A stretch of 64,000 nt of DNA from positions 35,036 to 99,035 of the forward strand of contig CAIKBL010000027.1 in assembly GCA_903825645.1 (NCBI GenBank), given 5' to 3'. Of this stretch, positions 17,390 to 24,044 are shown piece after piece. This DNA is from an uncultured Pseudomonadota bacterium. GTDB taxonomy: Bacteria; Pseudomonadota; Gammaproteobacteria; Ga0077536. The position numbers were made by a program, and so were the translations under genes. How positions within the stretch are numbered: position 1 is the stretch's first letter; each line of letters begins with the position of its first letter. Under the pieces are notes generated by a model. That model was given only the letters and a program-made list of their open reading frames with translations. It was not told the origin of the DNA and did not search any database.

Positions 17390-18421
17390 CTACCCATGCG
17401 CGGCAGTCGCGGTTGTAAGACCGATGCGGTCAAACAAGTGGCGATCGTCAAGGGTCAGTGGATTGTCGGTTGTGAGTAATTGCTCGCCATAAAAAATAGA
17501 GTTGGCACCCGCGAAGAAACACAGTGCCTGCGCTTCGTCAGTCATCTCCTGGCGACCCGCGGATAATCTGACAAAAGACTTGGGCATCATGATGCGGGCC
17601 GTGGCGACGGTGCGCACCATCTCGAAACTGTCAATTTTAGGCTGCGCTTCGAGGGGCGTCCCTTTGACGCGAACCAACATGTTGATGGGCACGCTCTCGG
17701 GCTGCGTCGGCATGTTCGCCAAGGTACAGAGGAGGCTGGCGCGGTCCTCGATGGTCTCGCCCATCCCAATGATACCGCCACAACAAACGTTGATCCCGGC
17801 GTCACGCACGGAGGCCAACGTGTCCAGGCGGTCTTGATAAGTACGCGTGGAGATCACGGTGCCATAGAATTCCGGCGAGGTATCGAGGTTGTGGTTATAG
17901 TAATCCAAACCCGCGTCCTTGAGTTTTGCTGCATGCTCCGGGCGCAGCATTCCCAACGTAACGCAGGTCTCCATTCCGAGGTTTTTCACGGCCTGGATCA
18001 GCGGGATAACCTGGTCGAGATCTTTGTCTTTGGGCGCGCGCCAAGCTGCACCCATACAGAACCGCGTAGCGCCGGCTTCGCGCGCGGCGAGAGCGGCCTT
18101 GGCCACGGTCGCCACATCCAGCAGCCCGCTCGCCTGAACATCGGTTTCGAAACGCGCGCTCTGCGGACAGTAACCGCAGTCTTCCGGGCAACCACCTGAC
18201 TTGATGTTTAGCAGGGTGCTGAGCTGTACCTGATTCGGATTGAAATGCGTGCGGTGTATGCTCTGGGCTTTGAACAAGAGCTCCATGAGCGGCAGACGAA
18301 GGAGCGTCGCCGCTTCGAGCACAGTCCAGTTCTCTTGCGCGGCTTCAGCGTGGCGTAGCCTGTTTTTTTCTTCTTGAAGACTCTGTACCGACATGTCAGG
18401 ACTCCGGAAATAGCGATGCAA
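17390..18421 (-). CDS. bioB: Biotin synthase BioB
   Basis: Radical-SAM CxxxCxxC motif [11 protein letters not shown]. The start could instead be the internal MSVQS. Confidence 0.9.
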
Positions 18422-18765
18422 TTTACTTGTGCGCTCCTATCCCGCTGAGCGGTAAAGGGATTAGCTTCGTAAACTTAACGCACGGGCCAAAACTTGACAA
18501 CTGGCAAGGAAATGGCCGAATAAAAACAATACTTTTTGGTCGCTGGCGGGCTCTTAATGAGAAGTGGGTTCTGCGGGTTTGGCCCAGCGGCAAACGCTTC
18601 ACGGTCGGCCTTGGCGAAGATCCGGCGTGCCTTTTTCGGCCAACATGTTTGGTGTAGTACAGTTTAAAGGCAACGGCGAGCAGGTGCTGCATCCACCATC
18701 CATGCGTGCAAAGGCATTATTAGTACGTAAGTGATCACTACCTTCTATCTTTAATATCTAAGTAA

Positions 18766-18939
18766 TCACCGACGGCCATGCTCGGCACAGGGCATCGCTC
18801 TCGCCTCAATAGCGAAGGTGTTTAATCGGTTTGCCTTACCAATCATTTCGACATTACGGATCACTGCGTCCTGAGTCAGCGGGCTGTATAAGCGGATGTT
18901 TTCTTCGATGTACTCGGTGTACTGACCAATGCGGTGCCC
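18766..18939 (-). pseudogene. HepT (DUF86) toxin-like fragment
   Basis: Reverse-strand translation GHRIGQYTEYIEENIRLYSPLTQDAVIRNVEMIGKANRL matches the HepT consensus ..QDAVIRNLEIIGEA... There is no start codon, the catalytic Rx4HxY region is missing and the frame ends prematurely. Local GC is about 45%. Confidence 0.5.
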
Positions 18940-18964
18940 TTAATTTTTTTTGCCGCGGCGGGCG

Positions 18965-19126
18965 TTAGATGGGCCAGGCTTCGATCAGCACAGTGGCCAG
19001 GATTTGCGCTGGCATCGCCTTCGGGGTTAGCACATCGACCTTGACGCCGAGGAGCTGACGACGCTCGTCGTGAATGGCCGCTTCCAGCGAGGCACCGGGG
19101 GTCACCTCGGCTTTACAAGCGAATTA
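18965..19126 (-). pseudogene. MntA-type nucleotidyltransferase antitoxin C-terminal fragment
   Basis: Reverse-strand translation KAEVTPGASLEAAIHDERRQLLGVKVDVLTPKAMPAQILATVLIEAWPI*. The N-terminal nucleotidyltransferase catalytic motif is absent. It lies directly upstream of the HepT fragment, the canonical antitoxin-toxin order. Confidence 0.5.
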
Positions 19127-19143
19127 GACAGACGAGGTTTAAA

Positions 19144-19187
19144 GCTGACAGCCCTTTTCGCAACATGCGGGCGAAAAAGGCTGTCAG
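19144..19187. terminator. Long imperfect hairpin downstream of the gyrB stop
   Basis: GCTGACAGCC(c)TTTT ... AAAA(a)GGCTGTCAG inverted repeat immediately 3' of gyrB on the minus strand. There is no clean T-run, so its role as a terminator is uncertain. Confidence 0.35.
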
Positions 19188-19198
19188 ACCATCTTTCT

Positions 19199-22718
<3,520 letters not shown>

Positions 22719-22756: not shown

Positions 22757-23857
22757 TCAGAGCCGCATCGGCATAACGACATACTTCGCGCCCGATTCCT
22801 TTCCAGCCTGAATCAGACAACTACTATTCGAGTCGGATAAGACAAAACGTATAGTGTCTCCTTGCAGGACGCTAAGAACGTCCAACAAGTAAGAGACGTT
22901 GAAACCAATCTCTAGAGGCTCCCCGTCGTAGCTAACCTCGATTTCTTCTTCTGCTTCTTCCTGCTCCGGATTATGCGCGGAGGCCTTTAAAACGCCCTTA
23001 CCAAAGTTAAGCCGGACACCCCTGAATTTTTCATTAGACAATATCGACGTTCGCTGCAGCGCTGATTTTGTGGTTTCGCGATCTGCTTCAATAATCTTGT
23101 CGCCGCCCTTAGGTAACACACGCTCGTAATCTGGATATTTTCCATCGACCAGTTTAACGGTTAAGGTCTGGTTCAAGACGGATACGCGCAGCACGTTAGC
23201 GGATATGCCCACGTCGATGGGTGCTGTCGTATGACTCGCTAAGCGCTGAATTTCATTAACCCCTTTACGAGGCACAATCAGCTGGCGGGTTTCTTTCAGA
23301 TCCAAGGGCATCGAATGTTCATTTAAGGCTAACCGATGGCCGTCGGTTGCTACCGCCTTAATCGACGTTTCATTAAGTTCCAGCAACAGCCCGTTCAAAT
23401 AATACCGAACGTCCTCGTGTGCCATGGCGAACTGGGTGCTGGCTATGAGTCCTTGCAATACAGCGCTGTCGATCGTGAACGCGATTTCATCCGTCGCATA
23501 TCCAATGCTAGGGTAATCGGTGGCGGGCAAGGTAGACAGGACAAATCGACTGCGGCCGGATTGAATTCTTATTTTTTTGTCTTTTTCCTCAATCTGCACG
23601 AGGGACTGAGCTGGTAGAGAACGACAAATATCGAGCAGTTTTCGGCCCGATACCGTTAGAACACCTTCCTGGCTAATTTTCGCTACGCTTCGCGCGACCG
23701 CTTCAACTTCCTGATCTGTCGCCGTAATGCTGACGTTCTCCCCTTCCGCTGCAAAAAGCACATTACTAAGTATTGAACCCGTCTGTCGTTTCTCGACGAT
23801 GTTCGCGACAGCCTGAAGTGCTAGCAACAGGTTTTCTCTTTCAATACTTATCTTCAT
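22757..23857 (-). CDS. dnaN: DNA polymerase III beta sliding clamp
   Basis: 366 aa with N-terminus MKISIERENLLLALQAVANIVEKRQT and C-terminus ...MPMRL. Confidence 0.9.
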   Translation of the reverse strand: MKISIERENLLLALQAVANIVEKRQTGSILSNVLFAAEGENVSITATDQEVEAVARSVAKISQEGVLTVSGRKLLDICRSLPAQSLVQIEEKDKKIRIQSGRSRFVLSTLPATDYPSIGYATDEIAFTIDSAVLQGLIASTQFAMAHEDVRYYLNGLLLELNETSIKAVATDGHRLALNEHSMPLDLKETRQLIVPRKGVNEIQRLASHTTAPIDVGISANVLRVSVLNQTLTVKLVDGKYPDYERVLPKGGDKIIEADRETTKSALQRTSILSNEKFRGVRLNFGKGVLKASAHNPEQEEAEEEIEVSYDGEPLEIGFNVSYLLDVLSVLQGDTIRFVLSDSNSSCLIQAGKESGAKYVVMPMRL

Positions 23858-24044
23858 CTTAGTATTAGTTCTATTTAAAGTTAGTAGTTGTAGTAATTAA
23901 ACGGGGGCATAAGTCTAATAGTTATTTTTTTCTTTATAAAACATGTTGATACAACGTATTTTTTGAACGAAAAAAATGTAAAAGTGACGTTGGACCTGTG
24001 GATAACTTGGTGTAACTGAATATCGACACTTAAACCGACCCAAG
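23858..24044. promoter_or_regulatory. AT-rich (about 30% GC) dnaA-dnaN spacer carrying a perfect DnaA box (TTATCCACA at about 23997-24005 on the minus strand); candidate DNA-unwinding or origin-associated element
   Basis: Read from the sequence as ...cctgTGTGGATAActtgg. The flanking A/T-rich runs contrast sharply with the roughly 60% GC of the window. Confidence 0.45.

Follow-up and report, generated by a model that had tools for sequence, protein, structure and literature searches.

What occupies the interval between gyrB and bioB is the question raised by the window, the whole 64-kb stretch of DNA analysed here, which comes from an uncultured gammaproteobacterium seen in MAG assemblies only. 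Both flanking genes lie on the minus strand: gyrB (19199–21595; 798 aa), placed from the ORF list and from the Pfam domains of the identical MAG protein, is the upstream neighbour, and bioB (17390–18394; 334 aa in the gene calls of the MAG assemblies) is the first gene of the series bioB-bioF-bioC-bioD. The gap between them measures 804 bases (18395–19198). Two further assemblies of this organism show an identical gene spacing, at 804 bases, and no called gene in the gap; the 90%-identity clusters of its GyrB and BioB contain this organism alone. The mechanical bioB ORF reaches upstream to a TTG at 18421, while the MAG annotations begin the gene at the ATG at 18394. The segment is very likely what remains, as a pseudogene without function, of a class-I MntA/HepT-type module, which pairs an MNT antitoxin with a HEPN RNase toxin, and the 'empty' gap after gyrB would accordingly be a pseudogene scar and not an unannotated gene or RNA.

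A reading of the letters alone, hereafter the sequence-only reading, had proposed a degraded pair of this type, with an MntA C-terminal fragment followed by a HepT fragment on the reverse strand, and the searches bear it out. Both peptides were found, in different minus-strand frames: the MNT piece reads '...TPGASLEAAIHDERRQLLGVKVDVLTPKAMPAQILATVLIEAWPI' (also written '...EVTPGASLEAAIHDERRQLLGVKVDVLTPKAMPAQILATVLIEAWPI') and ends at a stop at 18965–18967, and the HepT piece reads '...RIGQYTEYIEENIRLYSPLTQDAVIRNVEMIGKA...' (also written '...GHRIGQYTEYIEENIRLYSPLTQDAVIRNVEMIGKANR...'). A DNA profile of 22 intact mntA–hepT modules (688 positions), searched against the 64-kb window, gave a sole match at 19103–18832 on the minus strand (76.5 bits, E = 9.8e-24), the runner-up having E = 1.3. 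This 272-base match aligns to 300 of the 688 model positions (147–446), with ~39% of the module left, and it is colinear from the mntA 3' end through the gene junction to the hepT 5' end. Subfamily-specific protein profiles from intact plasmid pairs were scored on all 2142 six-frame pieces of the window and gave a single match each, with E = 3.8e-10 for MNT (profile positions 59–96 of 96) and E = 2.6e-7 for HepT (positions 21–56 of 128), the runners-up for both having E > 2; the identification depends on such subfamily profiles, which were made from sequences that the fragments themselves had found, with intact genes only and with the whole window scored.

Comparison with plasmids by tblastn placed the MNT piece at the C-terminal end of 'nucleotidyltransferase family' proteins of 96 aa (best E = 4e-4) and the HepT piece in the N-terminal part of a DUF86 gene located directly downstream of a nucleotidyltransferase gene (E = 1e-2). 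The two pieces match adjacent genes, in the same order and at the same plasmid loci, for example on Azotobacter chroococcum pAcX50f, and the MNT relic is 62% identical to residues 60–96 of the Azotobacter protein WP_040107461. When the HepT piece was compared by phmmer with 1.84 billion representative proteins, one match was returned, P0124 (E = 1.2e-4, 66% identity), a protein that scores 45.3 bits against PF01934 and whose gene directly follows an MNT gene; at the nucleotide level, the hepT relic is 74% identical over 103 bases to the corresponding metagenomic locus, L094. A metagenome scan with the MNT piece yielded 29 loci, with identities of up to 63%, and a HepT gene comes directly after the match in 24 of them.

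Similarity to the general family models, as anticipated by the sequence-only reading, was found only in part, since the fragments miss the Pfam thresholds, whereas the plasmid tblastn matches and the subfamily profiles are significant. The Pfam HepT-like model scores 13.3 bits on the HepT fragment (E = 0.069; cut-off 23.5), in register at profile positions 7–40. A Pfam search of the MNT fragment gave no match, and neither the NCBIfam models nor phmmer against the PDB returned anything for the two fragments. A word-indexed protein search with each of them likewise yielded no candidates, as they had too few 5-residue words in common with other proteins. The intact Azotobacter homologues clear the PF01934 and PF01909 cut-offs (99.5 and 39.1 bits, respectively), and intact homologues carry both GSX10DXD and RX4HXY.

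The relic keeps the arrangement of the reference loci, with the MNT gene upstream of the HEPN (DUF86) gene on the same strand. The mntA 3' relic (18965–19103, minus strand) extends from ~codon 49 to codon 96 of the 96-codon MNT antitoxin, with a 6-base gap, and includes the TAA stop at 18965–18967. It is followed on the same strand by a collapsed mntA/hepT junction (18934–18964), delimited by the gaps of the nhmmer alignment and by sequence and codon phase, and by the hepT 5' relic (18832–18933), which covers ~codons 21–56 of the ~125-codon HEPN RNase toxin. Missing are the mntA 5' end (model positions 1–146, the first ~48 codons) and the hepT 3' end (model positions 447–688, from ~codon 57 on). 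In intact homologues these are the parts that contain GSX10DXD (for example 'GSVVHGDDGEGSDLD') and RX4HXY (for example 'RNAVAHGY'), respectively, and both motifs are indeed missing here, as had been claimed: GSX10DXD has no match in the six frames of 18395–19198, and the sole RX4HXY string in the gap, 'RTSKLHRY' at 18433, lies in the bioB leader frame, is without HepT profile similarity and reads as a chance match. A longer hepT relic, reaching as far as 'FAIEARAMPCAEHG' with its Rx6H string (18801), was considered and rejected, being unsupported by the protein and DNA profiles.

Relative to intact modules, the junction is short of 4 + 18 bases, among them the ATGA start/stop overlap, and the hepT start is gone; this 22-base loss shifts the reading frame. 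An A8 run does lie in the junction between the two peptides (18944–18951), but it is not the rescuable frameshift site that it had been suspected to be: a TAA in the hepT frame (18940–18942) lies downstream of it, so that no A-run length could restore hepT, and the ends of the module are missing in any case. The claim that neither fragment has a start codon holds for the real starts, although mechanical GTG-started ORFs of 46 aa (18965–19105) and 32 aa span the two pieces. Of the 15 MNT columns conserved to at least 90% in intact proteins, three carry a substitution in the relic, and the aligned HepT core has F→R and E→K changes at columns conserved to the same degree, which suggests relaxed constraint. 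Because the motifs, the real starts and ~60% of the module are gone, and because a frameshift and an in-frame stop have been added, the relic encodes neither an adenylyltransferase nor an RNase; judged from the absent catalytic regions, HepT toxicity and MntA-dependent neutralisation would in practice be ruled out.

The remainder of the gap offers few recognisable features. On the gyrB side, ~40 bases separate the relic from a hairpin on the minus strand (19145–19187), an inverted repeat with a 17-bp stem that is 94% complementary. It begins 12 bases past the gyrB stop, and the RNA fold of 19130–19201 has an energy of −31.4 kcal/mol; the T-run that follows is weak and the hairpin is not listed by a simple terminator scan. 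It is probably the gyrB transcription terminator. On the bioB side, the 327 bases at 18505–18831, to which no strand was assigned, have no similarity to the TA module, comF, the plasmid collection, Pfam or Rfam, and may represent further decayed foreign DNA. Comparison of the whole gap with plasmids by blastn gave a spurious 33-base match only, and Pfam and tblastn searches with all other ORFs and frame pieces of the gap, on both strands, gave nothing. The plasmid genes that follow hepT (encoding hypothetical proteins and a cupin) and an endonuclease gene upstream were also compared with the gap, with no match.

Class I HepT/MntA is a HEPN/MNT type VII toxin–antitoxin system (PF01934 and PF01909), exemplified by SO_3166/SO_3165 of Shewanella oneidensis (Yao et al. 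2020, PMC7641770), in which MntA polyadenylylates the tyrosine of the HepT RX4HXY motif by means of its own GSX10DXD motif (PMC7641770). Like this system, the relic has mntA upstream and hepT downstream on one strand, with the junction between them kept; unlike it, the relic has lost the two signature motifs and the two starts, and its genes no longer stand in their former reading-frame relationship. The intact nearest homologues of the relic score 33.7 (MntA) and 49.3 (HepT) bits, below the NCBIfam equivalog cut-off of 60. The source module therefore represented a subfamily distant from the Shewanella pair, and its homology and gene order assign it to the class I HepT/MntA type VII family.

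The best-matching annotated intact relatives are pairs of a 96-aa nucleotidyltransferase and a ~122–133-aa DUF86 protein from proteobacterial plasmids. They include the A. chroococcum pAcX50f pair WP_040107461/WP_040107460, with 62% identity to the relic over 37 aa for MNT and 54% over 35 aa for HepT, and, from Klebsiella/Enterobacter plasmids, WP_001247892/WP_001293886, a pair associated with the Tn3 family. An architecture with a 4-base ATGA overlap is common to these pairs. On the other hand, the plasmid pairs are intact and plasmid- or transposon-borne, whereas the copy in the window is a chromosomal fragment without a recognisable mobile-element flank. Signature motifs, Pfam gathering scores and complete ORFs with starts, the marks of a functional class I HepT/MntA pair, are all lacking in the relic, and its proper annotation should be 'mntA/hepT pseudogene fragments', not a TA system.

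Damaged copies of hepT beside an MNT gene were also encountered at two other loci. On plasmid p1 of Caballeronia sp. Lep1P3 (L093, ~741–1120), hepT is interrupted by an in-frame stop, 'EELI' being followed by the stop and 'DAVIRNLEIIGEA'; in the JGI metagenome 3300040801 (L094, 196–462), the 88-aa P0124 is divergent and truncated past ~residue 66 and is without RX4HXY, and a MazE/PemK pair lies ~1.2 kb downstream. Most of the module is present at both loci, while in the window both genes are stumps. Toxin-first inactivation may be common in this MNT/HepT subfamily.

What sets the locus apart from its relatives is the loss of comF. The nearest GyrB relatives are 76–82% identical, and all four that were read have the gene order dnaA-dnaN-recF-gyrB-[comF, opposite strand]-bioB-bioF-bioC-bioD, in which comF is convergent with gyrB and divergent from bioB. 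The middle gene encodes a ComF/GntX-like phosphoribosyltransferase (TIGR00201, 83 bits; PF00156, 28.1 bits) and is full length in each of the four; a 125-aa call in L087 had the appearance of a truncated comF, but the full ~230-codon frame is open there and the gene caller seemingly took a late GTG start. The comF-containing intervals between gyrB and bioB (L083, 7398–8328; L085, 7398–8154; L087, 5063–5923; L088, 7401–8145) measure 745–931 bases, against the 804 bases of the present gap. Among the 80 gammaproteobacterial loci listed, comF directly follows gyrB in two more distant gammaproteobacteria, and no MNT/HepT gene lies near gyrB in any of these 80 (GyrB identity ≤65%); nor does any of the four nearest relatives have an intact mntA–hepT pair between gyrB and bioB. 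In blastn comparisons with the relatives, DNA homology ends at the gyrB stop (19198–19201) and resumes inside bioB. Neither tblastn nor a full-length comF profile located comF anywhere in the 64-kb window, the gap with all its frames included, and the gene therefore appears to have been lost or relocated.

One short element of the interval is nevertheless common to the relatives, as seen by alignment and by nhmmer with a relatives-only profile. It consists of 34 bases, CCAGTTGTCAAG-N-GCGTTAAGTTT (18471–18504, minus strand), located ~80–110 bases upstream of bioB, and was the best match in the window (E = 0.0043; runner-up E = 4.4) to a profile of the bioB upstream regions of the four relatives only. 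The element is retained at the orthologous offset from bioB; in the relatives it overlaps comF codons ~15–25, encoding 'LNNW'. It is either a control region shared by bioB and comF or the final remnant of the 5' end of comF, and it may serve as promoter or operator of the bio operon. A protein profile of the ComF N-terminus was not significant at 18471–18504 and neither were pairwise DNA scores for a comF 5' remnant against shuffles, the profile-based DNA test being the only significant one. A second motif of the relatives, nearer bioB (cgtgacgtccttgtcac), is not conserved here.

The history best supported by these comparisons is the following. A mobile MNT–HEPN module, possibly together with other DNA, would have entered the gyrB–bioB interval, which in this lineage would ancestrally have held comF on the opposite strand. 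Later deletions would have taken the body of comF and both ends of the module, at the 5' side of mntA and the 3' side of hepT, and what was left over would be the gyrB terminator hairpin, the TA scar, ~330 unrecognisable bases and the bioB control element. Since the nearest relatives are at most 82% identical in GyrB, we infer the order of these events (insertion, followed by the loss of comF and finally by decay) and the decay 'in place', as we do the former presence of an intact module at this site.

The alternative with the strongest case, although an unlikely one, is that the TA DNA was never intact here, a foreign piece carrying only the mntA-3'/hepT-5' junction having been captured during an illegitimate recombination or repair event that deleted comF. 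This would agree with the lack of an intact pair at the locus in any relative, with the similar sizes of the replaced interval (745–931 bases) and the present gap (804 bases), and with the loss of both module ends and of any recognisable flanking mobile-element sequence. However, the relic bears independent internal lesions, namely the 6-, 4- and 18-base gaps, the in-frame stop and the substitutions of conserved residues, and several independent lesions imply that the DNA decayed neutrally for some time, most simply at the present locus. Inserted modules that become bacterial pseudogenes usually do so, moreover, by stepwise deletions, which also favours the insertion of an intact module followed by its decay.

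Granted such an insertion, the relic might be the scar of the very event that destroyed comF, a DNA-uptake (competence) gene otherwise conserved here, through a TA-carrying mobile element; this is a tentative proposal, to which we give a rather low probability. If true, natural transformation would have been lost through the insertion of a selfish element beside the replication-origin gene block. Less likely than this is that the leftover DNA now contributes to the leader or promoter region of bioB. Most likely, the relic is without function of its own and serves at most as spacer or leader DNA from the gyrB terminator to the bioB promoter.

It is very improbable that the relic has been co-opted, either through the 46-aa GTG ORF (18965–19105) as an MNT C-terminal mini-protein or as a bioB leader or small RNA. 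The 46-codon frame is open to the native stop and the relic has a terminator-like hairpin on one side and the bioB control element on the other, but no promoter-like site was found within 18300–19300, and an Rfam search of 18000–19600 gave no family and no notable structure signal. Furthermore, the substitutions at conserved residues suggest relaxed constraint, and the 46-aa ORF is uncalled in the MAG annotations and carried by no other genome.

There is scarcely any likelihood that the MNT/HepT resemblance arose by chance, or that the gap is a decayed comF. Such a view could draw on the sub-threshold Pfam HepT-like score (E = 0.069) and the lack of a Pfam match for the MNT piece, on a gap length close to that of the comF-containing interval of the relatives, and on a weak match of the comF peptide 'DVLVPVPMPA' to the MNT piece (E = 0.12 in a 1.1-kb search). 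Against it stand the module DNA profile, with E = 9.8e-24 and colinearity across two genes, and the independent matches of the two fragments to neighbouring genes; the full-length comF profile is blank in all gap frames, the comF of the relatives has no homologue in the gap at the DNA level, and the weak comF peptide match is on the wrong strand for synteny. The notion of an intact MntA/HepT pair masked by sequencing or assembly errors, such as a miscounted A8, which might be entertained because the window comes from a metagenome-assembled genome, homopolymers are error-prone and the run lies in the junction, can be set aside, as 146 mntA and 242 hepT model positions are absent with only ~40 bases available between the relic and the gyrB hairpin, the TAA at 18940–18942 is in the hepT frame at any A-run length, and two other assemblies show the same 804-base spacing without a gene call.

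Degraded TA loci are common, and a toxin–antitoxin pseudogene is an already known kind of feature that reflects ordinary genome decay. The present locus adds one more case of MNT/HEPN modules decaying after chromosomal insertion, and its significance beyond annotation is little.

Base composition, on which the sequence-only reading had based a horizontally acquired low-GC island, tells a different story. The ~45% GC given for the segment, against a background of ~60%, was measured as 52.7% for 18700–19198 (47.5% in the lowest 200-base window), against a mean of 57.1% for the 64-kb window. The relic itself has 55.7% GC and the whole gap 52.5%, and the relic lies between an origin-proximal block of ~49% and a bio operon of ~58%: gyrB, recF, dnaN and dnaA have 48–50% GC (gyrB itself 49.6%), and bioB, bioF and bioC ~58%. 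The low-GC zone is in fact this ~11-kb origin-proximal block at 19–30 kb, with 47–52% GC against 57–62% in the remaining window. The step in composition between the block and the bio operon is also present in all four nearest relatives, which have no TA relic, with an offset of ~8–10 points (for example 42–47% against 55–57% in L083). It is therefore a property that the origin-proximal block has throughout the lineage and not a mark of the TA remnant, and offers no evidence of a horizontally acquired island. Within the same block, the cumulative GC skew has its minimum near 26–28 kb, and a stretch of 31.5% GC at 23800–23999, between dnaN and dnaA, suggests that the replication origin is nearby.
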